A stretch of 64,000 bases of DNA from Rhizophagus irregularis (taxonomy: Eukaryota): positions 4,464,001 to 4,528,000 of the forward strand of contig NC_089434.1 in assembly GCF_026210795.1 (NCBI RefSeq). Direction: 5' to 3'. Positions 9,974 to 59,572 of the stretch are shown in pieces. A program made the position numbers and the translations under genes. The notes below the pieces were generated by a model. The model ran no database searches and was not told the origin of the DNA. It saw nothing but the letters and a program-made list of their open reading frames with translations. The stretch's first letter is position 1; each line of letters begins with the position of its first letter.

Positions 9974-11441
9974 CCCTATAAAAATTAATTGTCCGTAAAA
10001 TGTAATAGTAAATAATTGATAAATAACGGTTATATAGATGTCTAGTAATTTAACCATTTTATATATGTATTTTAAATGTTAAATATACGGAAATTTGAAA
10101 TCTAAATGTAAATTATTTGTTTATTAAATGTACTATTCTCACTAATATGTATATAACCCATTCTATTAGTTATTCATCTGTATAATCTACATCCTTATAT
10201 ATCACGTAATAAGTAGTTTTAATCAGAAAAAACCCTACACAATGGTCTATAGCAAATGCATCAATAAATTCATGCGCTCCAGATTTTTGAAATGAGATAA
10301 GACCTGCACTATCTTCTCTAACATCTGCAGTCCAATGAATATACGTTAACATATAAGTTACTTTGTCAAATTCGTAAGCAAGATAATATTCAACCTGTTC
10401 ATAAAAAAAATTAAATAAATTAAATTATTTTTTTAAAAAAAAAATAAAGTTTTGAAGTGTTGTTCAAGACGAAACTCACCTATCCAACGAACTAGAGCCA
10501 AAATCTACAAAATAGAAAAAAAATTTTATTATAAAGTTTCGAAGTGTTATTCAAAACGAAACTCACCTATCCAACGTCCAAGAACCAGAGCCGAAACCTA
10601 CAAAATAGAAAAAAGAAATTAATAAATTAAATTATTTTTTTTAAAAAAAAAAATAAAGTTTCAAAGTGTTTTTCGAAACGAAACTCACCTATCCAACGCC
10701 CAAGAGCAGAAACCTACAAAATAAAAGAAGGAAAAAAAATTTTTTTAAATGAAAAAGTTTCAAAGCGAAACGAAACTTTAATAAAAAAAAGTTTATCACA
10801 TATACACGTGATAATCTTTGCCAGCCTATAAAATATGTTCAACCAACTTCGGAAATGATATTCGTAAAGTCATGTGTCGAAATTTAACTTTGGCTGAAAC
10901 TTAGCCAAAAGTCACATGACCAAAAATTTTTGATTTTGACTAGTGCAATAGAAATAAAGAATCTATCGAAAAGCAGCAAATTGAAAAACAAAACAAATTG
11001 CCAAATAAAATCTTCAAATTTGTATGTACCTTTTAAATGTGTAATAAATAATTGATTTATAGTGTTAATATTAGAAAATCGACACCGCAGCTAACATTTC
11101 GTAAATCATCTCGTAAAAAAGACAAATGTTGGAAAACGTCTAATTGAAGATAATAATTCAAGCAAACCTGTCAATAAATGACGATATAAAAGAAAATAAA
11201 AGTCATAAATTTTACAATAGGAATTTACTATACGTAAATTGACCTTATTATGTAATGATTGCATTTTGCATTATGTTTAAACACGTTATTTGAATGTATG
11301 TTAAGTTAGTTCTTGTTTATGTTTACAATACAACTTACGAATATTTAATTAAAATTATGTTCAAATTATAAACAAACAATGATTTTCAAATAATATATGG
11401 TCAAATAACATACATTTTATGGAAATTGTGTTTTCATAGGG
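9974..11441 (-). mobile_element. Non-autonomous CCC...GGG TIR element with 3-bp TSD (CMC/CACTA-like), carrying a micro-exon array and a residual coding exon
   Basis: Ends ccctata (9974) / cataggg (11441); TSD ctt at 9971-9973 and 11442-11444. Excision rejoins the hAT reading frame. Confidence 0.85.
10170..10394 (-). pseudogene. Residual terminal exon, probably from a CMC-type transposase C-terminus
   Basis: After a CAG acceptor: VEYYLAYEFDKVTYMLTYIHWTADVREDSAGLISFQKSGAHEFIDAFAIDHCVGFF. The family assignment comes from recalled similarity and context only. Confidence 0.5.
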
Positions 11442-12161
11442 CTTACTTAAAGTGACTAAATATTCAAAAAAAGTTGGTTTATTATTATTAATCATTTCAT
11501 TTCCATTATGCATCGGTTTTGTTTTAAACCCAGATTTTTTAAAAAAAAATTTAAAAAATTTTCTTTTTTTCCTTCCTTCCGGTTCTTTTAAGGCCGTTTT
11601 ATTTTAATCAGTTTTTTAAACCAGATTTTCAATTAATTTAATTTTTTTCTTGCAAATTTTAATAAAATTTTGTTCATCTCTTTCATAAGACACTAGCCAC
11701 TCACTAGCCCCACCTTTGTTACAAGAACCTGGAGGTGTGTTTCAGAATACTTTCAAAGACTCTTTTTTTTAAAAAAAACATTTTAATACGCAATAACTTT
11801 TATTTATTTTTTTTTTTAGAAGAATGGCTCCCAATATAGTTTCGGAAATTTTGAAAAAATGTTAAAATGTTATTAATAGAGTTAAAAGGACATTTATCAT
11901 TATAGGAAAATTTATATCTATGTTTATTGAACAATTTAGTTTTATTATAGATTAGAATAATTCGTATGATTAGATTTAGGATAGAACAATTTAATATTTC
12001 TAAAATAAAGTTTATAGTACATCAATTTTAAAATAAATAAACTATAACTTTACTGCAACTTTAATATTTGTTTACTATATTAAACTTAAACATGCATTTA
12101 ATATAATTTAAATATACATTCACTATATGTTTTCGATTTCAATACTATTTTTGCACGAGCT

Positions 12162-12322
12162 CCCAGTAAATAGTTTTTATATAAATCTGTACCAAATGGG
12201 CTCATCTATATATAATTGGCTCTAGATTGGCTTAAATTTGGATTATTTTTTGCATAAATTTGAGCTAATTTCGAGCCAATGAGCCCGTTTGGTATAAATT
12301 TATACAAAAACAATTTACTGGG
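12162..12322. mobile_element. 161-bp MITE, CCCAGTA...TACTGGG, 3-bp TSD
   Basis: Imperfect TIR of about 40 bp; TSD gct at 12159-12161 and 12323-12325. Confidence 0.85.
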
Positions 12323-13447
12323 GCTGGTTAAATCCGGTGACGATTTCCTTAATATGCATCAACTTTATACATACGATCCGCGTCAAGATTTGTGGTATTA
12401 AATCTTTACATGATAAAGTTTTGATATTGTTACGATATAGTTTCGATTTTAAAAGTTTCTGCAAAATAGGCACTAATAGAGTAATGAAATAAAATCATGA
12501 GATATGGAGTACGTAAAATTAATGTAATTCCCGACCAGTGGTATTAGAGTAACAAAATAAGTAATTTCATGAATTTTCATTTTAAGTGTTTCCAAATTTA
12601 GAAATATATCGTATATTAAAGAGAAGGTACACAAAAACGCACTACTTTAATATTGGAGGACATTATTAATCTTACACAACCGATCTTTGAAAATGTAGAA
12701 AATGTGGATAATAATACTTTTGAAGAAATTAATATAGACAGAAATGTGGATTTTATTCCTATTGATTTAGTTAATCAAATTTTAGAAAACTAATTTGTTA
12801 ATTGTTAATTTGTGATATTAAATTGAATAACCGAAACTCATACAGTAAATCATATGTCAAATTTGCCAAGTTTTAATTATTATATTTTAAGTTGCATGCG
12901 TCTTAAAATACGGCATACGTCATTATTTCAAATTTACTCTTGAGTTACGTGTCTGTCGTGTCATACGTCTATGACGTGACTTACCTTGAGGTTACGTCAC
13001 GTCATTTAAGGTAGTCTTAGCATAAATTTTTTACATTTTCCTTTAATTAAATTTGTAACCCCGCAGTTATTCGATTTCTTATAATAAATTAATGTTAAGT
13101 TCAATAGGTTAAATATATTTACGTAAATTAAATAAATAAATCGGCAGAAATTATGATTAATAAAAATCAATCGATACGAATAGGCTTGTAGGCGCGTGTA
13201 ATTAGTGAGCGTCAGATTTTTCGTAATTTCAAAATACCATCTATATGTTACGCACAGCTGCAAGTTACAGTATGATAAATTGTCAATTGCATAAATTTAT
13301 AGACAATGTTTAAAAATTAAGTGATCTTCATCTAATATTTTACTCGGATTTATCCTTTCAAAATCCTAGCCGACTGTAGTATTGTATTTGTTGCTACAGG
13401 TGCAGTATTGATAAGTCCGTTAGTTCCGATTTACGTCTTATACTATA

Positions 13448-13842
13448 CATGTTGCTGAAACTTTTTTTCAATTTCGGCCGCATTTCGGCTCCAAAATATA
13501 GCTACTTGTAGATATATCAATAAATTTTTTTAAACCTCAGATAATTTGGGCCAGATCTGCAGCAACTTTTAGCAGACTTCAGAAAATTTCGGCATAATTT
13601 GTAATAATTTCGAATCGGACTTTAAAGTTTTGGCCATATATTAAATATAGGTTGTCCGAAATTCCAGAGCCCTGCCGAAATTATGTAAGTTGGTCGAAAT
13701 TCCTCAAAAGTTCTTTCATAGGTTCTTCAGACCCGGATTAACCTATTTGAAGCCTAATTTCAGCCAGATCTATGAAATCAGATGATTTTGCTTTGAAGAG
13801 TTTGTCATGTGGACGAAATAGCCAAAATATTTCGGCAACATG
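13448..13842. mobile_element. TIR element flanked by TA/TATA
   Basis: catgttgctgaaa / tttcggcaacatg, tata on both sides, internal ccgaaat/atttcgg repeats. Confidence 0.7.
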
Positions 13843-14518
13843 TATATCTTATACCAAAATCGGTGGTAACAATGTTATTTATTAATTTTGTAAAATTATT
13901 TTTTTTTCCTCGTTGCGAAATTGTAATTCTAAAAGAAAAATTTCCTTAGATATTATGATAGAATTATAGATACTAGCTAAATAAACCCTAGATCAAGCAA
14001 GCAAACAATGACGTCGGTAGAAGTGAATTTGATTGCCATCCGTACACAAATCAGTCCCGATTTGGTTTCGATTTGAAAAGTTTCTGCAAAGAAGTTAAGC
14101 ATTTTTTTAAGTTTTGGTCGTTAAAAAAATTATTTAATAATAATATCATAAGCAAAAGTGTAAAAGCCTTTAATGATGTCTTGTAAAAAATAATGTAAAG
14201 AGTAAATACTTTAATTTTTTTCCACGATCTATCCATAATCTCTTCACGATCCCCGACGCGGTAATAATTAAACGTTTTATATAAAGGGAAAATGCATATC
14301 TCGCAGTTAAAATCTCGCATTCTGTAACAAAAAAAGAAATTCTTAATATACAAACTTTTTTAAAAAATGTCTAATATGTGTATTTTCCCCTGCTCTGCAA
14401 GTTTACTTAATTCTGGTCAGAATTAAATGATCGTCATACAGAATATCCTTTTTGGAATAAAGGCGAGATTTAAACATCACACAATCACACATGGGTGCGA
14501 GATCTAAATTTACCCTAC

Positions 14519-16326
14519 GAGAAATTTATTCCTCACCCTCCAATCACGTGAAATTTAACGTTTATAATTTTTTTTTTAAAAAAAATTAGTAACGCGTTTA
14601 TTAATTATGGTTATTTTAAAAAAAAATTACAGAAGACTATCTAAATACTACACTAAACTATTATGTAATTTAACTCTCGTTCCCCAATTATTTTTAATCG
14701 ATCTATCCACTAGTTACATCACCTAATAAACTATCTCTTGTTACTAATTTAATTAATTTTCTGTATTTTTTTCATTTAAACTATTTTTATTTGTTTTTTC
14801 ATTTTTTCTTTTCTTGATTTTTTATTACCGTCCCTATCATCATCATCATCTTTTCTTTTTTTCCTTTTTCTCTTATCCTTATTATCTATACCCTTATCTT
14901 TCTCTATTTCAGCCACTTCATCGTTCTTAACGTTTATAATTAGTACATGCGTCAATTGCGTCATCATATAAAACTATTTGTTTCGCTTTATTTTCTTTAG
15001 CAGCTGACGGCCAGAATTTTTTTTCTTTGGTATCAGGTATGTTTCTTTATTTTTTTTCTTCCTTATTTGTTTATTTAATATTACATTTCTAACTTCTTTC
15101 CTTTTTTCTTTCTTTTAAGTCTTTGGGCCTTTTGGTTTCGCGTTTAAAGGTATGTTTCCTCTTTTTTGTTTTCGTTCCTTACTTTTCATTTTTTAATTCC
15201 TTTTTCTTTTTTTTTCGGGTCTTTAGATTTTCGACTCTATGGTTAAAAATAAGTTTTTATTCTTTTTCTTTTTTTTCTTTGTTTTTTGTTCTTGCTTTTT
15301 ATTTCTAATACTTTTTTTTCTTTCTTCAGTAGGTTCTTCTTCGGGTTTGCAGTCAAAGGTGTGTCTTTGCTTTCCTTTTTATTTTGTTTTTTATATTTTG
15401 TTTCATACTAAATACTAACTATATTCTATTCTTTATTTTATGGGTTTCTCATTTACGGGTTTTGTCCTTTCTTTGTTTTAAATTTTTGTGGGTTGCTTTT
15501 CGTTCTTCTTCCCCCTTTTTGCTCTTTTTCGTTTCTCCTTCCCTTTTTCTTGTTTTCTTTCGTCCCTTCTTTTCTTATTATCTTTCATTCCTTCTTCCCT
15601 TTTCCTTGTTCTTTTTTATCCTCCTCCTTATTATTTTTCGTTTCTTCTCTTTTTTATTACTCTTATTCGTTCCCCCTTCTCTTTTTCTTACTTTTTTCAC
15701 CCTCTTTCTTTTCTCTTATCCTTTTTCGCTCCTCTTTTTTTTATTATTCTTTTTCTTCCTTTTCTTGTTCTTTTTTATTTCCTTTTCCTTTTTTCGCTCT
15801 TTCTCATTTTCATCTATTTTTTTCATCATGTTTCGTTCCCTATTGTTTTTTCGTCCTTTATTATCTTTTTTTCACCTTATCTTTATCTCCCATCATTTTT
15901 CATCATCTTTTCATTTTGTTCATCACCTTTTCATCTTTATTATTTCGTTCATTACATTTCATCTCTTATGTTTTTTTCGTTACCTAGTTTGTTTGTTGTT
16001 AAAACAAAATGTATATTTCTTGACTCGGAAGTAAAACCTGCCTGTTAGGTGATCATGTTTTTCTGATATATTACTCGTATGTAGCGCTCTTGTCTTTGAC
16101 TTGTTTTGTTATATATTTAGTAAATTAATAAACATCAATTATTTCTTTGCTATATAAAAAAAAATGTATATTTCTTGATTTTGATCGGTATTTCTTAAAA
16201 TACTTATGAAAATAAAGTCTTTGTTGTTAATTTTCTAATCAAAAACATAAATAAATTCGTGTACTGTTAATTAGCCAATCAACATTTAGGAGTGAGGACT
16301 CACCCGGTGTGAGGAATAACTCTATC
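14519..16326 (+). mobile_element. Non-autonomous TIR element (possibly Sola2-like) with micro-exons and a long polypyrimidine tract
   Basis: TIR gagaaatttattcctcac versus reverse complement gatagagttattcctcac (15/18); flanks ctac / ctat (imperfect 4-bp TSD). Confidence 0.55.
14570..14926 (-). mobile_element. Heavily 5'-truncated LINE tail
   Basis: 15-bp TSD ttaacgtttataatt at 14555-14569 and 14927-14941; T-run at the left end. The peptide IKLVTRDSLLGDVTSG..WGTRVKL resembles IKIVTLGKLTNAVTDG..WDTSTKL of the 5730-7559 ORF. Confidence 0.85.
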
Positions 16327-17639
16327 CTATATATATTTATAAAAAAAAATAACTTGATCTTTAAATTCATCATTTCATTCAAAATATCTTAAATTTGTTT
16401 GAGCTTTGATTAATTCTACTATTCCATAATTAGTTTATACGCATTTATTGATTTTAATTTTTTGTATACATTTACAGATTTTTCTTAATTCACAAAGGTA
16501 GAGATTAATTATGGTGTCACAGACTAATTCTGAGAGTAATTCTATTCGTGGATAAGCTTCTGAGAATCGATGATCAGTGTTTACCACGTCGAGTCGTCAA
16601 GATATTGTACTCTTGAACATTTACTTAACAAGAGTTGGTAAATTTCTTGTTCTAATAAAAGAAATTGATTATGAGGTAAATGAGATCCAATAAAAATTAT
16701 TATTAATAGTCTTTACAGTGATACTTCTGCCATAAGATAAATAATCAAATACTGGAGGCAATTCAATTCTTGATTTGTTAAGAGTCGTTTCATGTCATTA
16801 GGTAAATACTAGGAAGCGATAACGTTGAATAAATAGATTTCTTTTTCCGACAATTTTATGATAAAGCCAAGGATTCCTCCATAAAATTGGAATTGCAGCT
16901 ATGCACCAAAGTCTATTTACTATTGAACATGAATGTAGAATATTTAAATCATCTTAAATATCAACTTTATTAAGATTGGACATTTTTTTTTTTGATTTCT
17001 ACCAACTGGAATAATGCCTTTAAATATAATTTTCGTCTAAAAACCCAATACATATGTCAAACACGGCTTGCCATACGTATGACAATCACATAACGATATT
17101 TTACGATAAAAACTAATAAAATATCATGTTTTCAAATATATTATGCATATATTATAAAAAATGGTGCTGTATAATTAATTCCTTATAAGAAAAAGATTCG
17201 ATTCATAAACTTGTTTATGATACTTACGATTGCTGTATATATTTTAATTAATTTGAAATTTTAGTTTTTGCCTCAATTAATTTTTCCATTTTATTCACTA
17301 TTCTGTTATCCATTTCATCCGTACAACATCTGAGTTAATAAACATGTCGGACATACCCGAGATGAATGTAGACATATAAATAACCCTTGACTTGTTCATG
17401 TAGGATCTGCAAATTTTATTTTAGTTGTTTATGTATCTAATATTCATATATTTTATTTTTTTATATTGATGTTAATTGTAATAATGATACAGTCGTGTAT
17501 GCAGTTGAAAATACAGCGTCCATAAAAAAAAAAATCTTCCTTATTTTTATGGTTGGTCAATTATTTCAATCAGTAGTAATGTATAATGACGGTATATTGG
17601 CGCAGAAAAATTAACTATTGTATTTGACATATTTTCATA

Positions 17640-19110
17640 ATTTTGATAATTTTGGCCAAAATCAGTAACATTAGATTTCCTTTTTCGTTTTAGAACAAGG
17701 TATATATGGTAAAGAAGTTCTATAGATTTGTTCCAGACTCCTAATAAAGAAATACAAATATAACAATAGAATAATCAGAAGAATAAGTTATGCAGCTTAT
17801 TCATACGTACATTGAAATTACACAAAAGGAATAATAAATAGGAATTAAAAAAAGAAATTTTTATTTAATTATTATAAAATTATGTTGTTTATTATAAATT
17901 TTCTAAATCAAACCATTGAATAATTAATTTCAATGACATAAACACATGTGAAAAATATATTAAACATATTAAATAATTTTACAAAGAACTTATACAACTA
18001 AAAGCGTCAATAAGAACTTTCAAAATCTAGTTTAAGTAAGGGTTTACTTGATTCTAACAAGTTCAAAATGAAAATTTAATTAATAATTCTTTTGAAAAAA
18101 TACATTTTCGGAAAACACAAATGCATATTGGCGCACCAGAATTGGTCATATGCCATCTTTTATTTATTATTTTTTTTAAAAAAAAAATCAAAATGCTCAA
18201 TATTAGTCGATCGACTTACGTGTAATGGAGTTTTTCCTATTGCGCCCTATCTCTTTACGAAATAATTACAATTGATTGAAAAGTTAACCAATCCTTCATA
18301 CTGTATTAATTACTCTCCAAAATCCGCTAGATAAATGCATTAACATATAAGCTATAACCGATTTTCAAAATTCTTTTAAATTTTGGCTGCGGAAGAAAAT
18401 TGATGTCACGGGTAATGCAGATGATTACGTCAACTCAATAGTAAAAACGTAGAATTCCAAAATTTTATGGTAAATCCCTTTTTTTTTAAAAAAAAAAATC
18501 AACCCCATTTTTTGAAAAAAAAAATAAATAATTTATCTAAATTTAGTTTCTTTTAAAAAAAAATTTATCTAAACAGATGACCAATTCTGAAACGTCAACA
18601 TGCATCGGAGTTTCCAGAAATGCAGCTTTTTTAAAAAACTTTATTAATTTAATGTCATTTCGAACCCTCTGGAATCAAGTAAAATGGATTATGAAAGCTT
18701 CTATGACGTCTTTTGTGTCGAGTAATTCATTGTAAAATTTTATAAGAATCATACTTGTTTCACATATGTTTACGCCATTTGAAATTATTTATTTAATTGT
18801 TTGATTTAAAAAATTTAAAATAAACAACATATTTTTATAATAAAGAAACAAAAATAGTTAATTTTAATCCTTATTTATTATTCCTTTTACAGAAGTTCAT
18901 TACATGTATGAATTAACGCCTTTGATGATCCTATTGTTCTTTGCATTCTTTGTGTAATTCCTTTTAAAGGTTTGGAACAAATCTATAGAACGTCTTTACC
19001 ATTCTTCGTTAAAAAACAAAAAAGGAAATCTGACGTTATCTGACTTTGGCCAAAATTATGAAAATTATCACGGGTTTTAGCTGAGGATCTGCAAATTTAC
19101 TTTATCTGGA
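17640..19110. repeat. Head-to-head pair of diverged copies of a small gene-like repeat family
   Basis: 17640-18160 (minus) aligns with 18570-19060 (plus) at gatgaccaattctg, aatcaagtaaa, ggaacaaatctataga and tttggccaaaattat. Confidence 0.75.
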
Positions 19111-20639
19111 TGATTGATCATCTAAAACTATCTAAAACTCTTTATACGTTAGCCATTCGCATCTACAGATCAAATTTCTATAATCAGAATCATATGAACA
19201 CATTTTTTTTTCTCTAATGGTGATATGATTTATTTATTTTGGTTAATGTATACTTATAATATCAGACAATATAATAGTGATAACAGAAAATATATACGCT
19301 AGTATAAATGATAAATGATTGTAGTTGTATAATTTATATTATTATAAATAAAGAATTTAGTTAGCTTAAATTATAGCAATTATTATAAAAATATGTAATA
19401 ATAAATTTAACTTAAATATACTCAATGGAATAACATTGTACATGACGTATACACCGATGGATTTTATACTTTTTTATATTTTTTTATACCGGTGAAGTAA
19501 TTTGCAAAAAAATCCATCGGTGTATACATAATACTGACGGGATAATAGTAAATAACTTACGTCCTATAATTTTTTAAATAAAGAATTATACTGTAACTTG
19601 CAAACTAACATAAATTACCGAATAATTATTAAATAATATAAATAATGACGGCAGAATATACTGTAAATAAATAACTTACGTTCTATATTATTAATAACGA
19701 ATTTAGTTAGTTTAAATTATACTCTTGATTTATTGGTATTCCTTGATTTTACAGGAGTATATTAAATATGATCGTCTAATTGGAAGTTTTGTTAACAAAG
19801 AAATTCTTTCGGATTCTTCTACTGTAGATGAAAAACTGGCATCGGGAATTATCGGGTTTCACAAACTAATACATATACGGTAATAATATTCGGACAAAAG
19901 CATTTTTATGATTATGTTGGCAGAACCAATGCAACAATAACCAAATACGTGAAACAAAATCGGAGTATGCATTCTTTCAAAAAAAAAATATATATATAAA
20001 TGCTAAATTTTGTGCTGGATCAAATCAACTTCTAGTAATAGCAAACCATTAATTTTTATACATATAAACTGCTTCTCTCTTAATCGCAATTTCACGATAC
20101 TTTTCGTATCAATCTCTAATAAGAACTCCTTAGAGAACAATATATTCGTATTATTAGAAGATTTAGTTATTCTTTGATCAACCTATTGTAATTGATAAAA
20201 GTATAAACTTGACGTACTATTCAAAGATAACACATTTGATCTCGGATCCTTTACAACTTATTGAATCAAAATATAATACATCTTAGATATTTTAATAACC
20301 GGATCAATTTAATTTTCTAACACACCCCCCCCTCCCCCCCTCCAAATTTTAATTTAGATAGACACCAAAAAAAAGCAAAATTTTATCAATTTTTTAAATC
20401 CTCCCTCCTTCCTCTCAAAAATTTTGGTCCATATAGATATTAAAAAAAAAATTTTTATAATATTCCCCCATGGAAATCTAATTTTTAGATTTCTTTTTTA
20501 TTACTTTTCCCTCCCCCCCGTCCCCTCATTTTTTAAAAAAAATTTTGTAATTTATTTTTGTCCCTCCCTTCCCCCTCTTTTTAATAAAAATTCTTGTTAA
20601 ATAGAAAATCCAATTGGCCTGGCCTTATTTTTAATTTTT

Positions 20640-21215: not shown

Positions 21216-21304
21216 AATGACTAAAGTAATAATTCTATAGTTTTTCTTTATATCATTATACTGTATATATAATTGAATTAAAAAGCTTTAACATGATATC
21301 ATTT

Positions 21305-25873: not shown

Positions 25874-25960
25874 CCCTATAAAAATTTCAGAAAAATGATC
25901 ACGTGTCTGAGTTTCTTCGGAATAAAACCGGAGTTTTTTCCAGAAATTTTTTTATTAGGG
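25874..25960 (+). mobile_element. 87-bp CCCTATA mini-MITE, 3-bp TSD
   Basis: ccctata...ttaggg; TSD tca at 25871-25873 and 25961-25963. Confidence 0.8.
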
Positions 25961-28845: not shown

Positions 28846-30337
28846 CCCTATAAGAAATATGTATACGGAAAGGATACGTTTTGTATACATTTTATGTACG
28901 TTTCTATAGTTTCCGTATACAAATTCCGTATATTTAATAAGCAATTCATTTTTGAACATTTTTTAAAAAAACTAATGTATACGGAAAAAATTAATCATAC
29001 GGAATGTATACGGAATTTTTAAACTTAATATTTTTTAGTTACGTATCATAACACGAGATCACGTGATTGTTTATTGTTTTGTTTATGATACGTTTTTTGT
29101 TTTTTATATAAACCCTTACTTTGATGAGTTTGATCTTCCGATCTTCCTTTCTGTCTTGTCTTATTTTTGTTATTTTTTCTAAATTTTTCTTCTTTTGTCA
29201 CCCCCCTTTTAAAAAAAAATTTTTTTTTTCGTCACTCCCTTAAAAAAAAAAATTTTTTTTTGATTTTATTCTTTTATTCCCACTATTCCCACACTTCTTT
29301 TTTTTAAAAAAAAATTTCTTCTTTCTATTTCTATTTCCTCTTTATAAAAATTTTTTATTTTTCTAACTTTGACGTCCTCCCTTTAAAAAAAAAATTTTTT
29401 TTTTAACTTTCCTAACTTCGTTACCCTCTTTTTAAAAAAATATTTGTTTTTGATTTATTCTTTATTCCCCTTTCTTTTTTATTTATATATATCCCTTTTT
29501 TTATTTCATAGGCCAGCAGATTTTTTTTTTGTGAGAAGATTCAGTTTCTTTTTTCTTTTTTGTAGATCAGTTTGGGAGTCCTTCCTTTTGTAGGATTGTT
29601 TAGGATTTTTTTCTTTTTTTAAGTCAGTTCAAATTTTCTTTTTTTTTTTTTTGTAAGTTGGGTTCAGATTCTTTTCTTTTTGTAGGTTGTTTCAGTTTTG
29701 TTGCTTCAGAGTCTTCTTTTTTTGTAGGTCAGTTTTGGATTTATTTTGTTGTTTTGGTTTCTTTTTCATCAGATGCTTCATAATTCTTTCATTTATGTAG
29801 GTCAGACATTCTGGAGTTCTCTTTCTTTTTTTGTAGGAATGCTGACCTTTGGTGACTTGGACGATTGCAGATACTATATGAAGGGGGTTTTGTTTCCAAT
29901 TAAGTTAGACGTTCTTATGTTTCTTTTTTTTGTTTTTTTTTTAGGTTGTTTGACTCCAAATGAACCTGAACTTATAGATAATTTTGGTTGCAATAGGTGG
30001 TTTTAATAAGGAGGGAATTTTCATAATGTATTTGTATTTTGTTTATTTTTTATTTTTTATTTAATTTAATAAAGTAAAATTAGATTTATGTAAATATATT
30101 ATAGTAAACTGTAATACAAATAGTAAATTCAGTGACCAAATCGTATAAATTTCGTGATAAAATCAGTGATCAAATCATGTAAATTCCATATGAATTCCGT
30201 GCAAATTCCGTATCCAAACCATATTTTAGTGATACAGAATTGTGCATTTTTCCGTATCCTATTATGATACGTTATTTCTAAGGAAAAAAAATCGTATAAA
30301 AACTTTATAAAAAACGTATCCCGATTTTTTTATAGGG
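28846..30337 (+). mobile_element. 1.49-kb non-autonomous CCCTATA element with 3-bp TSD and an array of splice-acceptor-like motifs
   Basis: ccctata / tataggg; TSD att at 28843-28845 and 30338-30340; subterminal tacgga/tccgta repeats. Confidence 0.9.
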
Positions 30338-36282: not shown

Positions 36283-36514
36283 CCCTATAAAAAAATATTG
36301 TCCAAACACTGGTTCGGAAAATCGACCCCGTTCCGAACATTTACTTGACATTTATTGGACATTCATCATGACATTGTACGTTTTTAATGTGGTTAAAAAA
36401 TTCTCAATCTCCGCATCTTGTATTAAATTGTAACAAATATTGTATAATAACGTGCGAATGTTCGGAAAATTGACCCCATTCCGAATAATTATCGGACAAA
36501 TATTTTTTATAGGG
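36283..36514. mobile_element. 232-bp CCCTATA MITE, 3-bp TSD
   Basis: ccctataaaaaaatattgtcc / ggacaaatattttttataggg; TSD caa at 36280-36282 and 36515-36517. Confidence 0.9.
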
Positions 36515-37247: not shown

Positions 37248-37422
37248 CCCTATAAAACCGAAATGTGTTAAATTTGTTGTTCATGTGTAATAAGTGTCTA
37301 AAAAAGCACCATTTTGTCCAATTTATGTCTTATTACAAAAAAACGAAAATTAAACAAATGGTGCTCTTTTAGACATTTATTACACATGAACAACAAATTT
37401 AGCACATTTCGTTTTTATAGGG
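37248..37422. mobile_element. 175-bp hairpin CCCTATA MITE, 3-bp TSD
   Basis: Near-complete fold-back; TSD gga at 37245-37247 and 37423-37425. Confidence 0.9.
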
Positions 37423-37906: not shown

Positions 37907-38303
37907 TGTTACCACCGGTTTCTGACGTTCGGTAGGTAGTAACTAGGGATGGCAACGGTCGGTTATCGGCGCTCTGTAATATCCGTATATCTATCTGTTG
38001 AAAATAAAACCTATACTAAACTTAAACTGAACTTAAAAAAAATCTCTAACTAATTACTCCAACTGCACCTCCAACAACGGTCCTTTTTATATTGTTAAAA
38101 TTCTGGTGCAAATCTGTCTTTCGAACAGAATTGCCACCCGGCCAATTGTGGCGATCTGGGCACATTTGTCTATACAGCCACCTGTATTCAGCCGCTAAGC
38201 TTCCGTTGTTTTATCTAATCACTAATTAACTAAAAATAACTAAAAATAACATAACTAAAAATAAATAAATAAAAAAAATAAAATAAAAAAATATCCCGTG
38301 ACA
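37907..38303 (-). mobile_element. Inner, internally deleted copy of the same TGT...ACA family, 4-bp TSD
   Basis: tgttaccaccggtttctgacgttcgg ... cccgtgaca; TSD ccac at 37903-37906 and 38304-38307. Confidence 0.8.
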
Positions 38304-38561
38304 CCACCTTTAATTCAGCACTGCTAAGCTTCCGATTTTATCTAATCGTTAAATAACTAAAAATATCTTTACGTAACATAACTATAAATAAACAAATAAT
38401 AAATAATAGATAAAAATAAATACATAACAACAAATACATAACAACATATATATATATAAAAGAATAATATATCCCGTGACATAAACATGTTAAACTTTCG
38501 TAGCATCGATCAATTCCGAACCGGCACATGATGATCACATGACATCGACATCGACAATTTA

Positions 38562-39812
38562 CAGTGGTGTGCAAAAAAAATGACAATTTTTTTGAGTAAT
38601 GATCAGCAGGCATAACTTATCCGATTTTAGTCGTATCTACACAAATAAATATGCGTATGAAAGCCCCGTGATTACTTTATTTTTTAACGAAAAATTTTAA
38701 CCGTATAAAATGCCACTATCTAAGCAAGAAACTCAAAGACAAACGATATTACAATTCTGGAGGCAAGGAATACGTACTGCCGCCAAAATTCATTCTTTGA
38801 CAAAGATACCACTTAGGACAATATATAGGAACCTTAAAAAAATCAAAAAAACCGGAGATGTGAAACATAGAGGTGGCAATGGACGTATTAGTAAAATAAC
38901 GCAAAAGGCTGCTCGTGAAATTGGACAATATATTCGAAGAAAACCCACAATTACCGCCAAGTTCATTGCTGCCAAATTGGAAGATGTTGGTGTTAACGTC
39001 TCTCGCTCAACAGTTTCAAGGTATTTGACCAGTCACGGATACAAAAATGCACTCCCCCTTGCTACACCAATGCTTACTCCAGCCCATAAGCATAAACGTA
39101 TTGAATGGGCACAAAATCACATGAATGATGACTGGGCAAAATACTTTATTTAGTGATGAGACAGCTTTCCAGCTATTCCGCAACACAGTAAGACATTGGT
39201 ATAAAAAACAACGGCCAATTCGTCCCATACCAAAAGACCGAAGTAAAATTTTTGCATGGGGTGGTTTTTGCATAAGAGGTAAAACAAGTCTTTTTTGTTT
39301 TAGGGGTATAATGGATGGAAAATTTTACACAAAAATATTAGAAAGACAAATTCCAGAGGTGTACAGTATGTTAGGAGATAGTTGGCGGCTGCAACAAGAT
39401 AATGATCCTAAACATACTAGTCGGGTTGCTAAGGAATTTCTCAAAAATAATGTCCCAGAGGTTATGGACTGGCCATCCAATAGTCCAGATCTAAACCCCA
39501 TAGAAAACCTTTGGGCAATTGTTAAGAGAAATACAGAGTTGCGTAGACCAAAAAATCTTAATGAATTAGATGTTTTTTTGCATGAAAAATGGGTAAAAAT
39601 TCCAAATAACCTCCTAATTAATCTTGTAAATTCAATGCCGCAACGTTGTAGGGAGGTTATTGACAGAAATGGTGAACGAATACCATATTAATTTTTTTTA
39701 ATAAAGTCTACTATGTTTTAGCTTTAAAATAATACTTTTTATTTTTTGATTGGTTTATTGGTTAAAAAATTAACGTGACTTGAAAAATTGTCATTTTTTT
39801 TGCACACCACTG
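38562..39812 (+). mobile_element. Full-length Tc1/mariner DNA transposon (1251 bp)
   Basis: TIR cagtggtgtgcaaaaaaaatgacaattttt with a matching reverse complement; TA TSD at 38560-38561 and 39813-39814. Confidence 0.97.
38710..39691 (+). pseudogene. Tc1-family DD34E transposase with a single frameshift
   Basis: HTH region with GR..K; FSDET, QQDND, WPSNSPDLNPIENLW with 34 residues between the second D and E. One extra base at gactgggcaa (~39135) separates the two ORFs. Confidence 0.93.
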
Positions 39813-41679
39813 TATATCAGATAATAATAATAAGTGTATTTAATTAATATTGTTAACATAATTTAAAAATTAAGCGCTTTTGTCTTTTGAAGCACAACCG
39901 GACGGATAAAGAAAATTTAGCAGGTATTCTGGAACGTCAATTTATAACTTTACGAAAGAAACATTAAAGAAATTATCTTAAACCAATAAAATTTACATTT
40001 AAAAGAAATACCTTGTTTCAATAAAGTTTATATGGCTAAATAATTGAACTCATCAAAGGCACGTTAAAGTTTACAAATAGTAATAAGAAACAACTGAAAC
40101 AATATCAAAATTAACAATATTAAGAGATCCGATATATACTTTCTTATTCTGTATAATTGATTATACGGATGATCATCCATTTAGATGAACGTATGATTGG
40201 ACAACTGTTCAAAGTACTAGCATTTATGTTTATCCATACTGTAATGTTCATTCGTGATTGGTTCTAAGTTTTGAATGAAATAATATGAATTGATGAAAAA
40301 AGAAATTCGGCTAATATCGAAGAATTTCATTGATTCACTCCTACAGTCCTATAACCTATATTTGAAATTATTTTGTTTGAGATGAAACTTTCCGAAAGAT
40401 TCGCCGATTCATATTACTGTGAGCATAACTGGTCACGAGCCAATTAAGTTATTTCTCCTTGTTTCATAAATTACAGTAGTAATCTATTTATGAAACATTA
40501 AAAGTCTTCCTAATTTTGGAAGTTTATCGAAGAATTTCATATCATTACTTGTTTAATTGCAAAATTTTTTGCAACCAATAAAGACCAAGTAAAACTAAGC
40601 AACTTTATATAATTTTTATTAGTCTAAAGCTTAAGTATGATTTATCATAAACTTTTAAGTCTCATGTTTATATGATTGATAAATTGCTCGTTGTTTATCA
40701 GATACTTTAACGTTGGGATAATGGTCGATGTTGAATTGTGCCATTACGTACAACATGACAATAATTAATCGGGAATAACATATTAGTATACTAAAATTTT
40801 GAAATAAATCTTTAGAATTTTATTTTCATATTTTTTTGGAAGAAAGCGGGTTTCAAAAATAAATAAATAAATAATAAATAATTCTGACGAAAATATTATG
40901 CGCCAAATAGAATCTGATATACTGATAATTTTTAGACTAAGATACAAATAATTAGTACTTTTGATATTTTTTGCGTTACGTCATTTAGATTAAATATCAC
41001 ATTTTACAAGTAAAGTAGTACTATATATAGTTTGTTTATATGAAGCATGATCTTGGACATCAACAGACTGCTTCGCAGTGATATTCCCTATCCAATAGTT
41101 GTGTTGTAAATAATTATTCATTGATAAAATAGATAGAATTATAGGATATTTATGGTATCGGTATGTTGCACGATTTTACATTTCGCATTTGAAATTAGGA
41201 ACGTGAGAAAGTTATTCGCACTTTCTTAAATTTTTGTTTTTAGCGTTTTTTTTATTAATTTCTTTTACGTAATTTTATTAAATAATAGTAAACAAATAAA
41301 TATTCATTATATAATTCTCGTGAGTTTTGTTCTAAAATATTAATTAAGAAAGAATTTTTAATTCTAATTCTAAATTATTATGAAAACTAGAAATAATAAA
41401 TACTGGAGATGTAAAATCATGCGCGGAATATGTAAAAATGTGTAGCTAGTGTAGCCATATCAGCATATATAGGTGTATAGGAATCCCACGCAACCAGTAC
41501 TTCCATCAAAAGATGCATAAAAATTTTTGAATTTTCGAAGTTTTAAAAAATTGTACACTTCTAATAATAAACGTCATTTAGAACCTGCTGGAACTAAATA
41601 AGATGATATGCACAAAAATTATTAGATTTTTTTAGCTACGTCACTCATTAAGGTTGTTATATAAATTATTATAACTGCA

Positions 41680-45690: not shown

Positions 45691-45787
45691 CCCTATAAAA
45701 AATTTTCAGAAAAATGATCACGTGTCTGAGTTTCTTCGGAATCAAAACTAGAAAAATGATCATTTATCGGAAATTTTTTTTATAGGG
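45691..45787 (+). mobile_element. 97-bp CCCTATA mini-MITE
   Basis: First ~50 bp nearly identical to the 25874 element; ends tataggg; flanks aat / act. Confidence 0.8.
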
Positions 45788-48735
45788 ACTGTAACAATTT
45801 ATTAGAAAGATTCGCCGAAACAATACAAGATTTGATATAAATTCTTAAAATGGATTTTCTTTATTGCATTTTATTTCTTTTAATTCATCTAAATAATTCC
45901 CTGTTGTTAAATTGGATATACAACTTTACTGACTCTTTTGTATCTTGAAACAAAACTATTTGTTACATTTAATATAAAAATATTCGGCATTTGATAGGAA
46001 AAAGAAAATTTATAAGTTAATGCAAATAAATGCATTGTTGGTAACTTCCAAGGATTATTAATGAGCGAGCGATTTTCTGATTTTAGGCATAGTTCATTTA
46101 TAAGAACTAATAATATTTGGTTGCTTGGACATGAACTATCTTTTATACATATATGAATTTATATTAGTATTAAAAAGTTAGATAACCTGATTTAGATTTA
46201 GTACTTAATTGATTTTACCACCCAGTCCAATAAACTAATAACTTGATGATAAGATTTAAATCGACGATTTATTTATTTTATCAATATATTTAACCCACCG
46301 TTGTGATTGGTGATTTCATTAAAACGTTTATAGTTTTAAGAGCGTTATAAAAACGTTGGGAAAGATATAAAATAAAATACATTTAGGAACTATACTAATC
46401 AAATTAAAGGTTAATACGATCACCTTGGCATGGGTTTGGATTTTGGAAAAATTTATAAACCCGGATCTGGGTTTAGGTCGGAACCTCTTTACTTTTACCA
46501 TGTTAAAAACTGAAAAAAGGAAATTCAATTGGCCTACGGTCTTACTATATCGTGAGTTTGGGCTGAAGTACTGTAAAACAATTTGACTAGTAAGACTTCA
46601 GAGAATTTTTTTACTAGTGAGTTTTATAGTTTTATACATACAGTTTATGAAAATTAAATTTATTTGTATCAATTATTAAAATAAACGCTTTCGAAGTTTC
46701 CCGATTTCTTTTATTATAATTGTCTTACGAAATGGAAGAAAAAACATTATCGAAATAAAAAACGTTAAAACGAAAAAAATAAATATCGAATTCTTACAAT
46801 CACTAAACAAAACGCGAGACATGGACCAAAAAAAATCTTATAATATCTTAATTTCTTCTTAAAACATCTTAATTTTTCATTATTAAAAAAAAAAAAAAAT
46901 GACAGTGGTCGGGTACGGAAGTAATGGGTTGGAGAAATGGACGTGTTTTTTCTCTTGCCTCCCGGTCTATTTTACCGCACGTTAAAGACTGGGGGGAAGG
47001 ATTTGTTTCTCCAATTAATTGGGATTCGGATTTGATGTTAATTATTAGTAACACTTTTTTAGCGTTGCTAATTTATTTTTAGGATATAAGGAAAGAATAG
47101 AATTTTAGATCTCTATTTAACAGAAATTATATTTTTTGATAATAATGTTTTTGATAAACATTAATTAGCCAGGAATGTGATACGAGAACAACAGTTACAT
47201 GACCAGATGACCAGACGATGATCATTTTCATTAAGATGCGCGAACGATTGGATAATTGCATTTTCTGTTCATACTATAATGAATGTAACTGGTCCTAAAG
47301 ATTATATAATTAAAAATTAATTAATTATTAAATGTTACAGTTAAAATTGTAAATAACTTATACGAATAAGGTTATTGATATTATCGGATATAAAGTTTGC
47401 ACCGAATAATTTTATTACGGTTGAGGGGTTTGTTTTTTTAAATAGCTACGATAAAGAAAATTCTCACTGAATTGTTTTTATTCTGTGATCAAAACAAGTA
47501 ATATTTGATTGTTCTATTCATGCAAACAAATGACTGGATAATAAAAAGTATAATTCTATGTATGTAACAAAAAATTGGCTGATGAACACTTCGTAGATTC
47601 ACGATTCTTTACGTTCTTATTCTATACTTGGAATCATATTATTTATTGTATTGATTGTATTGAAATAAATAAAATTTTTTTTCGAATTTCCAGATTTCGT
47701 AAGATAAGCAATATTTTGATGTATTGATATAACCTTCAACCCGAATATGATTAAGAGTTTGTTTTTCAAAATATATATGTGTGTGTGTATATATTTGCAA
47801 GTAAATGCTATTGGCTGATTATCAGATGTATGTACGCAAAGCGAATAATTAATTAAATAATGTAAAAATAACTATTTAATATTATTAAATGTATATAATT
47901 AAATACAAATCTCCGTAATTTTTTCTATTTATTTTCACATATCGGAATATCGTTAAACGGAGTTAGAATCATTCAACATGGATAATTTGCGTTCTTATTT
48001 GACATTATATGTGTGAAAATATGCAAGTAATAATATTTTAAAAAAAATTTCTAAAAATACTATAAATGTTGTAATACATCCAAAAATCTAAAATGCGACT
48101 TCTTCAAGTTCTATTAATTATGATAATTGCATATAAAGTTATGTTTAAAACGACAACTAACCTTTTATAGGACAATAAATAAGATTTTAAATAAATTATC
48201 ATTTAGAATTTGATACTTTCCAAATAAATAATTTATAGAATCATATGATATATTTCTTGGCATTTTTATTTCACATGTTTTGTAAATTTCGTGTGGCAAT
48301 TAAATTTTATATTACATTTATTTATTATGTGTAATATTTTATAATCATTTGTCGCGCAAACAAAAATTTTTAAGAATTATTTTTATTCGTTCTATTATAA
48401 AATTAATGTGAATTTACGAGCAAATTATTTTAACTGTAGATGTCACAGGCTCACATGTAAGTTTTTTTCGGAATAACATTTTTAATTCACGAATTCACAC
48501 GGATTACACGTTCTAGATTATATTTTATCAATCACGATTGGTGTCACAGAAAGGTAATCAATAGAATGGGTTCAAATTTTATTCACAAAAAAAATTAATA
48601 CCTTTTTGTGTTGAATTTACAAATAATATATATATGTGTGTGTAGGGACGCATTTATTTATAGTATGGCATTTTTATCAGATGAAGGAAAATATATAAAA
48701 AAAATGCAAGTATTAAACCATCTTTAAAGATATTT

Positions 48736-48892
48736 GGGCGCTTTGCAGTAGAAAAGGACGAAACTACTAAAAAAATTCAAATTTTCTTTTATATACCAAA
48801 AATATTCTAAATGCTATAATTTGTTCAGATTTTATATTAACTCATTTTTTATTTTTTTTAGTAGTTTTGTCCCTTTCTACTGCAAAGCGCCC
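48736..48892. mobile_element. 157-bp MITE with ATTT TSD (Sola1-like, AWWT)
   Basis: TIR of about 38 bp, gggcgctttgcagtagaaa / tttctactgcaaagcgccc; TSD attt at 48732-48735 and 48893-48896. Confidence 0.85.
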
Positions 48893-51800
48893 ATTTATCG
48901 ACATCTCGAATTCCTTATCTGACAACATGTTTTTAACATGCATGTAGTAGATCTATTGTATCCCATGTGAAAGTTTTTATTCGACAATCATAATATATTA
49001 ACATAAAAGAAAATTTTGAAATTTCACGATATTTAAAAAATATTTTTCTATCGCGATAAGCTTTTTTTTCTGAGATAAAAGAAAGAAGTAATAATTTACC
49101 TAAATTTGATTTTTTTTTTGATTATTAATTTATAAAAACTACATTTGGCAAGTCTTTTTAAAAAATGAAGATAAGAATAAAAAATAAAACTAAAACTAGT
49201 AAATAACCTCATTAAACAACAAAGAATATTGGTTGTCATAACGCCAATATGCATTCATTAGAGTTTCCGAATGTACATATTTTTTTAAAATTATCAATAA
49301 ATTATCATTCGGAATTAGTAAAAAAAAAAAGATTTTAAGAGTTCTCATGACATTTTTTTTTTTTTGTGTATGCGAAATAATTTGTAAAATTATGCAATCC
49401 ATTTCCTGTAATGTTTCACATACTCACATATGTTTGCATCGTAATTTGATTTAAAATATAGAATACTTTTATAATAACAACATAAAAATAATTTTTTTGA
49501 TCCATGTTCTTTGTTCTTTTACAGAGCTTTATTATCATAATATGATATTATTTCAACCAAACTTCTCCTTTGCATATTTGCGTAATTGTTTATAGACGCT
49601 TAGAACAAATTTATGGAATCTCTTTATCATATCCTCATTATAAACCAAAAGAAAATTGGAAATTTCGGCCCGCATTAGGATTTTTTTGGCCTGCATTATT
49701 ATGATCTTTACCGGAATTGTAAAGGCTTATTTTCAGTTCATCTGTAAAAAAAAGTTACATATGAAAGAAATAAATCTTCCTTATCTCCTTTATTGACTCG
49801 TTCATATTTTGCGGGAGAAAACGTTTCACAATAAATCAAATAAATATTTTTTTCAATATAATTATTTACAGTACGTTGATAACAGTTGATAATTCTATAT
49901 TGTATATAATATATACTTGTATCACAATTCACAGATCCGCATAGCAACAGAATTTTCGAGTTTTTTTTTTGGCTACATAATTTGAAATGATTATCTGACT
50001 AACCATTTTTCTTTCTGGCTAATCAATCTTTTTTTTATATAATTTCAAAAAATTACTTGAGCCGATTGTTATTGAATTTTCGTCTAGTATGATGTTAACT
50101 TGTTACTCTCCAAGTTTTTGAAAATTTTAAAAAGTATCTCGTTCAGTTTGTTAAAAGACTTCTTACAATTCATAAACTCCTTTTTACAATTAACTTATTT
50201 TAGACACATTTTCTTGATATCTATGAAGGAAGAATGATACTTCTGATGAGAGGTTAATGTGGAGAGGTTGTTATTTGAAATAAAAGCGATAGGCGAGATC
50301 TTTCTTAGAATGAATTTAGATCATTTATATAATTTACAGAAATAATTTGAAATAAGAATTTTGAGACAATGATGAATTTTTGTGTGAATCTCATAAAAAA
50401 TATTGATGATCCGAATGATCCATGTTCTAAAATGTGGAATATTCACGGAATTTTCGAAAAAAATTTTTTGTAAGTTGATTTTTTTGCTTTTTCGAATTTT
50501 TTTTAATTTAATGTAGGAAAAGGAAATTTTGTAATTTAAAGACGAGAATGAATATTTTGTATGGATTTGCGTATTTGTTATTTTGAAATGTTTTTTTTTT
50601 TTTGTAATTTCGCTAAGAAATTCAAATGAAAAAGGTTCTTACTTAAAAATAGACTTATTGAAACGTTTAATCATGAGATCATCGCGAGAAATAGTTTTTG
50701 AAAGAAAGAAAAATTCCCCTTATAAAATGCGTTACTTGTTTCGAGCCATTATTTTTGTAATTAAATTAATAAATCAAATTATTTTTGTAAGATTAAAAAT
50801 TTATGAAACAAAAATTTCCATGATTGTCATTTTAAGATGACGACATATCACATTTTCTAATGATAGAATCTACTTTAATTATTTGATGCGACCTTAACTC
50901 CACCCAGAATACATCATGCACACAAGCAACAAATTGCACTTTATCAATCTTAATCATTCACTTACTTTTTCATACCAGGCTCCTAATAAAATATTGATCC
51001 CCAGTATCATCATTTATAATTAATTGCGAAATTTATGTGATTGCATTACCATTTTATCATTTTTATCATTAAGCGAACCATAATAACCGAATGGTGATTA
51101 TGGAATACGGATGTTTCAGAAACAGGTAAATAATGTCACGATAAGCTAAACTCATCTAATATCTTTATTATCAAAATAAGTAATAACAGATAAAAATCTC
51201 TGAAAATTTTTACCAAAATACACGTTAGGAGTTTTTATTAAAATAAGAAATTCAGAATAGGACCAAAACCTAAATGTTAATGGCCGGAAAGTAACTTATA
51301 TTTTTAAATGCACGATCATGAGAAATACTACACATAATATTAATTTCAAACTAATTTACAGTACAATTAAAAATTTAATTTCAGTACGGGTTATATCGAT
51401 TAATTTATATTAAATTCTTTTTTATTAATCAAGGTTTTTCGAAAGTATCGGAAATCATAAAAAAGATTTTAGATTCCGTAGTGAAGTTTAATTTACTCAT
51501 AGGATCGAAATTATTGTCAAATCGTTTATTGTAAAATGTTTCATCAGAAAGATTCGTAGAATAAATTTATTGAGTATCGTACAAAATATATCAATGTAGC
51601 GTGACATTCTAAATATAGTTTACAAAATAATAGAAAGATTATTTAGTATAGACCCACCCCTTATAGCAAGATATTTTTTATATAATCACATAAGATATAA
51701 TTTGCGATTTATACAAAAAAATTTTATTATATAATTTTAAATAAAATATTAATAAATTTAATAGTAAATAATTGTATCATTAACGTGATTACCTTTTTAA

Positions 51801-51999
51801 TGAATTTTTGATTGTAATAATTGAATGAAAATTCATTATAACTGAAATCATTGTTAACTTTCAATAATAAATGCATCCCACCCACCTCCTAATTTATACC
51901 TTAATTTGAAAATTACGAGTACCCCATTTTATTATAACTGTAAAAATTAAATTTGCATTACCCTATTACATTAAACAAATAAAAAAAATACAATTATTC

Positions 52000-53500
52000 C
52001 ATACCACAACCATTAAAAAATAAATTAAGTGTACCTTGCTTTTTCGAATTAAACTAAATATTTTCTCCATTATATCATTTTGTTGCTCAAAAAAATTAAT
52101 AAAAGTTTCCGGTCCACTAACTGCTTTTTTTACCGATATTGCAGGTATTTCGTCATCATTTACTTCTTGATTAATCAGCTTGTACCAAATTAATAATTTC
52201 TTCATCAGTAAGGTCGAATTTCATGATCAAGTATCTTAAAATATTCTATTACATCATCGGACTCTGGCAAACGATTAAGAAGACTTTCTTCATCTACATC
52301 ATAATTATCATAAGATGGATTTTAATCTAATAATTTCGTATTTTTTTTTGAGTAACATTATTTCATCCTTCAGCAATATAATCAATGGACTCCTTAGTTA
52401 ATATTTGTTTCTAATATAATAATTAATATTAATTAAAAAATAGTTTTATAACTTACTTTACATAATCTATTCCAGGGTCAAATTGACGAATTAAACGTTT
52501 ACAAAACTCCTGCTTGTACTTGATTTTAAAACTATGAATAATACCCGCATCCATAGGTTGAAGATGAGCTTTTGTATTTGGTGGTGCCTATGATTTTGAC
52601 TTGATTCTTGTTCGTTATCTATCATTTCCTCATTATTAATATCATCATCATCTTTTTCATGTCTTATTAGATTAAAATGGGAGCCTGCATTATCAATAAG
52701 TAGTAAACTCTTTCAATATAATGTACGAAAATAATTATCTAAATGCTTTAATCATTCAATAAAAATATCAAAACTCATCTATGCTTTTGAATTAGCACGA
52801 TAAATCACAGGAAGAGCCAAATTGTTAAAATTTTTAAGGCATCGAGGGTTAATTTATGAGAGCCCGTAGCATTAGCATAAAAAGAACAGAACCCAGCTTT
52901 TATCCTATAAATAAATAAAAAATCAATAACTAATTGTAATTAAATAATAAATTAATTTTTTTTATTATATTTTATAATATAAAATTGAAATATTCTTACT
53001 TTTTTACGTTCAGCAACTGCTCCAGTACTAAGTGTTTGATTTGGTTCCATTCAAAAAAAAAGGCCTGTCTCATCTGCATTATAAATATCTTCATCATATT
53101 TAGCCAAAAATGCACGTAAACGTATACGTTCCTCTGAAAAACCTTCAAGCGGTGCACTTTTAGCTTTCCCTGAAACATGAATTTCTTGAAGACTATTACG
53201 CAATTTAAATCTACACACCCATCCATTAGCACAACTTTCAATATTTAACCTAGTCTAACCCTTTTTAAAGGAACTCCACTAGCTAAGTCCAAATTTGCAT
53301 AGCCAATATCAAGTTCTGAAACTGAACAGAACGTTGCCAAAAAGTACGTGCAGTCTGTGAAGTAGAAAGTGCTTCTACCCATTTTTGATGATCCTTCCAC
53401 GTTTATTAATGGTCGTTCTTTGGATATCTAGTCCAGGATATTTGTATTAAAAAATCACCTTGACTTAACTAAAATATAATTTTTATAATTTTTCATAATG
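52000..53500 (-). pseudogene. pogo/Tigger (CENP-B, DDE_1) transposase pseudogene
   Basis: DIYNADETGLF, LLIDNAGSHF, PPNTKAHLQPMDAGIIHSFKIKYKQEF; introns, stops and frameshifts. Confidence 0.88.
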
Positions 53501-54099
53501 CGAAATTGAGATTTGGCAAATCATCAACAAACATTCAGTGAGTAATATTGGTAAAAATATATTATAAATATTATTACAATTGAAATTGCAATTATTTGAT
53601 TCATAATTAAATCCAAACAAAAGAAAATTTCTGAATTTCCACTGAAATCCATGTCCCAGATCTGACTAAAATGAAAAAGTTGAAATGTTAGTTTCGTTAA
53701 AATTAACAAAATTAAAAAAAATATCTTCCGATTTCTCACCAAGAAAAATCTTCGTGAATTACTGAATTCACACATCCATACTCGTCTAAAAAAAAGAAAA
53801 GAACGAAATGTTAGAAACATTTCGTTAAATGAAAAAAATTAAAAAAAATATTCGTTTTCCCACCGAAATCCACATTCTACCGTCTGAAAAAAAGAAAATT
53901 TTCGAATTTTATAAGTTCAGGCATATTAAAAAAAAAAGAATAAAATTTTGAATGTTAAAATGTGTTTCGGTAGAATAAATAGACTAAGGCACTAAGCAGA
54001 CAAAGTATTACGGCATGGGATTGCGTGGTACTATTCAATATTAGATGCGTCGTAGAGCTGAATTATTAGATCTGATAAAACAGATAAGGTCTCAGAGAA

Positions 54100-59540: not shown

Positions 59541-59572
<32 letters not shown>

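Follow-up and report, generated by a model that had tools for sequence, protein, structure and literature searches.

A 64,000-nucleotide stretch of the Rhizophagus irregularis genome (contig NC_089434.1, positions 4,464,001 to 4,528,000; hereafter the window, whose own numbering is used throughout) was found to contain tandem arrays of exon- and intron-like units inside or beside decayed DNA transposons. The window has a GC content of ~27% and is crowded with transposon relics. At three places, termed sites 1, 2, and 4, two to four intron-like segments of 62–91 nt are separated by spacers of 20–46 nt, and sites 1 and 4 are clearly local tandem duplications of one exon+intron unit. We give a probability of about 0.5 to the reading that the three sites are transposon leaders, non-coding and spliced, in which tandem duplication was tolerated and added units; from the sequence, we infer that their segments are or were spliced. 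The original prediction had placed one such architecture at four sites, in elements of different terminal type. Intron-like anatomy with tiny spacers proved real at three of these, whereas site 3 turned out to be a T-rich minisatellite. The features that carry the finding are listed below.

9974..11441, minus strand: element 1, an internally deleted non-autonomous DNA transposon of apparent CMC (CACTA/EnSpm/Plavaka) type, recognized by its termini and a 3-bp duplication.
10404..10713, minus strand: site 1 array, three tandem exon-like spacers with intron-like segments, from a unit scan and alignment.
10173..10403, minus strand: C-terminal remnant of a CMC-type transposase directly downstream of the site 1 array, with 51 relatives at E ≤ 0.001.
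53620..53883, minus strand: site 4 array, two homologous intron-like segments and a degenerate third unit, from alignment and branch motifs.
52200..53300, minus strand: broken pogo-like transposase gene, from the Pfam domain DDE_1.
14519..16322, plus strand: element 2, T/C-rich and non-coding; its termini (GAG...CTC) are imperfect, and its flanks form a degenerate 8-bp duplication.
15001..15442, plus strand: site 2 array, four intron-like segments, from alignment and branch-motif shuffles.

Each unit of site 1 consists of a T-rich TAG acceptor, a spacer ending in GGATAG, a GTGAGT donor, and an A/T-rich segment. Each of the three spacers (10689–10713, 25 nt; 10567–10597, 31 nt; 10480–10504, 25 nt) is followed by an intron-like segment, of 91, 62, and 76 nt in turn, and the internal deletion of the element has cut into the last of these. 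The segments are homologous (z 7.4–10.2 against 300 shuffles), so that one unit was triplicated rather than three arising independently. The surroundings of the donor are identical at 21 of 21 positions across the three units, and a degenerate fourth unit that has lost its donor lies upstream. The adjoining remnant is a 77-aa frame with 80–100% identity to Rhizophagus proteins. Because the sequence that precedes it is coding in relatives, the junction between array and remnant is a deletion breakpoint, and the AG before the remnant was ruled out as the original acceptor. The spacers were likewise ruled out as coding exons, as the last one ends in an in-frame TAG ahead of the remnant.

The array appears to be a family trait with a variable number of units, judging from gene models of other copies. 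In R. irregularis models P0008 and the near-identical P0054, P0009, and P0057, two to four translated units precede the same remnant. These models join the units, so gene finders accept the splice signals, although splicing is not thereby proven. One contig of run X15 was without one 86-nt unit, a joint of a kind that is often false at repeats. When proteins of near length were searched, the antisense frame of the array had no relatives, and the unit-derived part of P0009 matched itself alone. Separately, gene model P0002, at another locus, fuses the element 1 remnant with a host gene that has Kelch repeats ('galactose oxidase'), which may be an exon trap or an annotation artefact.

The host element of site 1 has 31-nt inverted termini with CCCTAT and is flanked by the 3-bp duplication CTT. 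Outside plants, CMC/CACTA termini begin with CCC, and the target-site duplication measures 2–3 bp. Short inverted CCCTAT termini with 3-bp duplications (CTT and ATT) were found in element 1 and in element 3, which is described below; these were two of the six CCCTAT elements examined, and the four small ones had no such duplication. Small CCCTAT...TAGGG miniature elements, with no clear 3-bp duplication, are situated at 25874–25960, 36283–36514, 37248–37422, and 45691–45787. A longer relative of the remnant (P0051, one of 14 relatives scanned) gave a weak DUF4218 match (E 0.013, below the cut-off) and carries a motif that we take to be CACTA-type; CMC/CACTA elements encode a TnpD-type transposase. 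Together, the termini and this relative suggest membership in the CMC superfamily, whose elements are numerous and expressed in R. irregularis according to the available text of PMC8647823 and PMC11075540. Element 1 sits within a hAT relic whose flanking part has a weak DUF659 match. Three R. irregularis gene models that match the remnant also match this flanking relic at 96–100% and appear to be this very locus.

At site 4, the two segments, 53786–53863 (78 nt) and about 53662/53666–53739 (74–78 nt), are homologous (z 8.1), the spacers measure 20 and 46 nt, and both segments carry a branch motif, CTAAC, ~29 nt from the end. The array lies ~350–400 nt upstream of the pogo-like gene on the same strand, and from this position we take it to belong to a pogo element. 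The gene showed the DDE_1 domain in two scans (E 3.5e-5, above the cut-off, and 1.9e-5), and its coding region contains a 95-nt intron-like segment at ~52905–52999; a PDB search with a piece of it returned nothing. Just past site 4, on the plus strand, lie broken frames (54300–55260) that we presume to resemble a Helitron replication protein; one piece scanned gave no Pfam match.

Site 2 resembles sites 1 and 4 in dimensions. Its segments of 83, 77, 80, and 84 nt are spaced 100–113 nt apart, with spacers of 36/33, 30, 23–24, and 29/26 nt. All four carry a YTRAY branch motif 25–34 nt from the 3′ end, for which the joint shuffle probability was 6e-4 with hand-chosen boundaries. The donors are GTATGT twice and GTGTGT once, the third being broken; one acceptor is AAG and the fourth is broken, so that two of eight splice sites are broken overall. 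The intron interiors scarcely align (z 2.0, 1.1, and −0.5), and spacers 2 and 4 are homologous (P 0.004; one of ten spacer pairs below 0.01). Site 2 is thus probably an older tandem duplication, now decaying, that has kept its intron anatomy. MULE and hAT elements have inverted termini and 8–10-bp duplications; by these rules, element 2, whose flanks agree at six of eight bases, is likely MULE- or hAT-type. Its long stop-free frames are of low complexity.

With exceptions, sites 1, 2, and 4 show what is typical of spliceosomal introns: a GT donor and AG acceptor, a branch motif, a pyrimidine tract, and a short fungal length. Masked self-blastn at E 1e-4 returned zero matches between different sites, in agreement with the predicted absence of obvious shared primary sequence. 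Raw local alignment scores exceeded those of shuffles for three of the six site pairs, probably owing to common T runs.

Site 3 and its host element have another organization.

28846..30337, plus strand: element 3, a non-coding CCCTAT element, recognized by its termini and the 3-bp duplication ATT.
29512..29945, plus strand: site 3, a degenerate T-rich minisatellite with 28–54-nt units mostly ending in TTTGTAG, from motif counts and shuffles.

No coding remnant was found in element 3. Site 3 contains 11 acceptor-like sites against 5.4 expected (P 0.007) and five occurrences of TTTGTAG against 0.24 expected, with just two donor-like motifs. A single strict chain of two introns can be traced through it, without branch motifs. 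The most plausible interpretation is a T-rich minisatellite of acceptor-like ends, distinct from sites 1, 2, and 4 in architecture. The motif CACGTG, which occurs 14 times in the window, is found a short way upstream of the T-rich region in each of elements 1, 2, and 3 (at 10805, 14545, and 29060) and is possibly promoter-related.

The original prediction had proposed a comparison of transposons with shuffled sequence; here, shuffles were made for the 64-kb window, to which all unit and chain statistics refer. Strict chains of at least two complete introns were observed twice against 0.09 expected, a count matched by one of 100 shuffles. Single units and chains with a broader donor definition were not enriched. 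The broad-donor chains numbered six against 4.3 ± 2.0 (P 0.25), or one against 0.8 when a branch motif was demanded, and the chain scans do not pick up site 2. In site-local shuffles, the P values for strict units were 0.0005 at site 1, 0/2000 at site 2, 0.02 at site 3, and 0.08 at site 4; these P values were computed after the fact, and duplication inflates them, and at site 2 two of three units have a common donor.

Transcription of the stretch with sites 1 and 2 was investigated with RNA reads mapped to 9975–19974. The material comprised two contig sets and about a quarter of the reads of each of two poly(A) runs, which are unstranded and carry the label of this species. The runs placed 1137 and 1117 reads, of which 984 and 1012 were only partial. 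At site 1, depth was zero at 10643–10976, where 10617–10757 was masked as repeat and exons of 25–31 nt may be too short to anchor. Reads at 10399–10435 were rejected as expression, since they form no more than an A/T patch of 36 nt, in which each run has ~70 loose ends. Position 15006 of site 2 was covered by 23 and 8 reads, 30 of 31 of which carried a variant base; the site 2 reads therefore come from another copy or strain. Some of them extend back to the terminus of element 2, which suggests read-through or DNA.

Both RNA-supported joints look like genomic deletions. The joint 14568–14944 was rejected as splicing on three grounds: TT..AG ends, a position on a 15-nt direct repeat (14555 and 14927), and presence in an X1 contig. 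A deletion variant in the genome is its most likely origin. RNA reads and an X1 contig reveal a related copy from which the 372-nt segment at 14555–14941, between the 15-nt direct repeats, is absent. The top RNA depth of the mapped stretch (~40x in both runs) was at 13315–13982 and came from a diverged repeat copy.

Our preferred explanation is that ordinary spliceosomal introns and non-coding exons would form the 5′ leaders of these decayed DNA transposons. Slippage or unequal exchange between A/T-rich tracts would then duplicate one exon+intron unit. The spacers appear frameless (25, 31, 25, 20, and 46 nt, with TAG at the end of those of site 1), so additional units would cost little, and non-autonomous derivatives would carry the array along as it decays. 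Any benefit would be the usual effect of introns on expression and export. This explanation is supported by canonical donors and acceptors and the narrow length of 62–91 nt at three unrelated sites, by a branch motif where one would expect it in all four segments of site 2 and both of site 4, by the identical donor surroundings in the three site 1 units, by the gene models of other site 1 copies, and by the location of the arrays upstream of transposase remnants on the same strand at sites 1 and 4.

A number of results weigh against spliced leaders. Strict single units in the window numbered 20, against 14.5 ± 4.2 and 14.0 ± 4.1 in two sets of 200 local shuffles, and relaxed ones 47 against 53 ± 7.5 (200 local shuffles). 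The rate of single units, about one per 6 kb of strand, is that of chance. The sites and their boundaries were picked after inspection. At site 1, conservation at the donor is only modestly higher than in the next positions into the introns, of which 19 of 24 are identical, and intron 2 has no YTRAY close to its 3′ end. The gene models with joined units (P0008, P0009, P0054, and P0057) are predictions and apparently pick cryptic donors that avoid stops. Around the site 4 array and the pogo-like gene, no convincing terminal repeat pair was found between 49–52.1 kb and 53.6–56.5 kb in this decayed copy. Sites 1 and 4 are the only ones with a transposase remnant downstream; in element 2, neither a transposase nor any other recognizable coding remnant was found downstream of site 2, so that a leader there is only putative. 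No GT-AG joint was present among the 15 listed of the 75 joints mapped to the stretch of sites 1 and 2. Over site 2, RNA depth averaged 14.6 and 11.4, against 7.2 and 2.5 expected if exons alone were covered, a possible sign of unspliced or cross-mapped reads. If anything, the RNA speaks slightly against efficient splicing of this copy.

Some of these points bear on an alternative that we regard as unlikely, though the likeliest of the rivals: the arrays may be T-rich internal minisatellites or subterminal protein-binding repeats whose splice-like motifs are accidental and were copied along. The chance frequency of single units and the absence of splicing from the mapped RNA are in its favour; site 3 and a 35-nt repeat at 8.3–8.6 kb are such minisatellites, and CACTA elements with tandem arrays are known (PMC8978399, in the text available). 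The 35-nt repeat (8336–8602, ~7.5 copies) is strand-asymmetric. On the other hand, the site 2 segments are still alike in length, spacing, and branch motif though the intron interiors no longer align, and each of three unrelated repeats has an intron-sized period, with donor and acceptor in the correct order.

Exon+intron-sized duplication may be a general process in this genome, as indicated by two loci away from the four sites. One of them served as a comparison.

56600..57400, minus strand: comparison locus, four tandem exon+intron-like units in a broken gene, with a period of 125–142 nt and the donor GTATAA.

No transposon ends were seen around these units, which fail the motif filters used for the sites. 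Peptides from this locus may be kinase-like; Pfam and PDB did not confirm this, and pieces of the locus gave only weak WD-repeat matches in PDB. The second locus (38178–38416, minus strand) is a two-unit 127-nt duplication of a T-rich segment and a short spacer ending in AG-GTGG, possibly a further exon+intron pair. It lies beside a nearly intact Tc1/mariner element (38557–39817, plus strand), which has 35-nt inverted termini of 97% identity and a transposase in two frames with the domains HTH_Tnp_Tc3_2 and DDE_3, and which contains one single unit and no chain or array.

The duplication at 57 kb suggests such a general mutational process, and it also bears on a second alternative, in which the arrays are captured or neighbouring host-gene fragments (5′ untranslated regions or dead coding exons) rather than leaders of the elements themselves. 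We consider this improbable. An apparent host pseudogene at 57 kb does have the same architecture, site 2 has no transposase remnant, site 4 has no element ends, and CACTA elements are known to capture genes (PMC8978399, same text). Nevertheless, in several copies the site 1 array stands ahead of a transposase remnant that belongs to the element itself, and no host source was identified, though no search of the genome for one was made.

The original prediction itself favoured a third explanation, according to which several transposon superfamilies were selected to amplify short efficient introns, so that their RNA escapes RNA interference (RNAi) or methylation. This also seems doubtful, and no result of the analysis supports the anti-silencing step. 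Arrays of this kind, without common sequence, are present in two superfamilies at least and perhaps in a third, and the available text of PMC11075540 reports ~40 AGO-like genes and expression of CMC elements in R. irregularis. T-rich intron-like DNA is moreover protective against HUSH in mammals (PMC7619638, as far as its available text goes). However, not all of the introns are the 'short, strong introns' of the prediction: some splice sites are weak or broken, with weak donors at sites 2 (see above) and 4 (GTGGGA and GTGAGA), two broken sites at site 2, and one site 1 intron without a branch motif. The precedents invoked from Cryptococcus and HUSH also cut the other way, since poorly spliced introns trigger RNAi in the former (PMC5851062, available text) and since HUSH concerns intronless retroelements and intron protection from it is independent of splicing (PMC7619638), whereas the elements here are DNA transposons. 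Furthermore, the pogo-like gene already contains an intron-like segment, the nearly intact Tc1 element (38.6–39.8 kb) has one unit and no chain, and the similar duplication at 57 kb is outside any recognized transposon.

A bolder form of this idea would have at least three DNA transposon superfamilies independently building micro-exon/short-intron leaders whose unit number tunes escape from small RNAs, a convergent counter-defence that would offer a natural dose series; we see it as a long shot. Finally, splice sites acting on host transcripts, with acceptors trapping host RNA or the element being spliced out as in maize dSpm, are highly improbable: the excess acceptors at site 3, the joining of a Kelch-repeat host gene to the site 1 remnant in P0002, and the terminal splice sites that En/Spm reportedly has (from the title of a 1990 paper by Menssen) agree with such a role, but hundreds of bases separate the arrays from the element termini, and the P0002 fusion is only a gene prediction.

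Other features of the window include three tandem 376-nt copies of ~92% identity (58588–59705) and, on the plus strand, an open frame of 621 aa at 5694–7790 without a Pfam match and followed by a poly(A) run, which may be the 3′ end of a LINE-type element. Scans of metagenome, viral, and prokaryote collections yielded no copies of the family: a 20-nt site 1 motif had one match in the metagenomes, GC-rich (65%) and due to chance; the viral scans gave three single motif matches and one weak protein match, in contigs of 36–55% GC without arrays; and 0 of 91 candidates was confirmed in the prokaryote genomes. A look-up in the atlas reached a top score of 0.80, which is the chance level. A search of sequencing runs found no RNA holder among the 24 listed, a result that says nothing on expression.

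If spliced leaders are the correct reading, the arrays are likely an undescribed structural trait of R. irregularis transposons. They would explain spurious 'hypothetical protein' models, either as stitched units (P0008, P0009, P0054, and P0057) or as fusions of the remnant with neighbours (P0002–P0005). The seemingly variable unit number within one family could be used to test whether introns help or hurt a transposon that faces fungal RNAi; should they help, this would be a new form of transposon counter-defence. We found no description of such arrays in the literature on fungal genomes and transposons, of which supplements and curated repeat libraries could contain them; by term look-up, they are absent from the available text of PMC10234402, PMC8647823, PMC11075540, and PMC5751038.

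Among known systems, maize En/Spm has a multi-exon transcript and dSpm has terminal splice sites. Both share with the present arrays a CACTA element and splice signals outside the transposase frame, whereas the units here are tandem duplicates with 20–46-nt spacers, are internal, and occur in unrelated elements. The non-autonomous CMC elements of R. irregularis (PMC8647823, PMC11075540) are like element 1 in their short inverted termini, 3-bp duplication, and C-terminal transposase remnant; the main texts of these papers contain neither 'intron' nor 'splic', and an internal exon+intron array is not described there. The SCANR pathway of Cryptococcus (Dumesic 2013, as summarised in the available text of PMC5851062) similarly ties the quality of transposon introns to silencing in a fungus, but there the introns make transposons targets, and evasion by intron amplification is not described in that text. 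In HUSH discrimination (PMC7619638, available text), introns and T-rich DNA also protect transcribed loci; unlike the case here, the system is mammalian and aimed at long intronless retro-derived DNA. Introners, in the available text of PMC9860276, likewise represent a transposon-related multiplication of introns, but they are dispersed as near-identical introns in host genes, whereas the units in this window are tandem, local, and unrelated between sites, and lie inside or beside larger elements.

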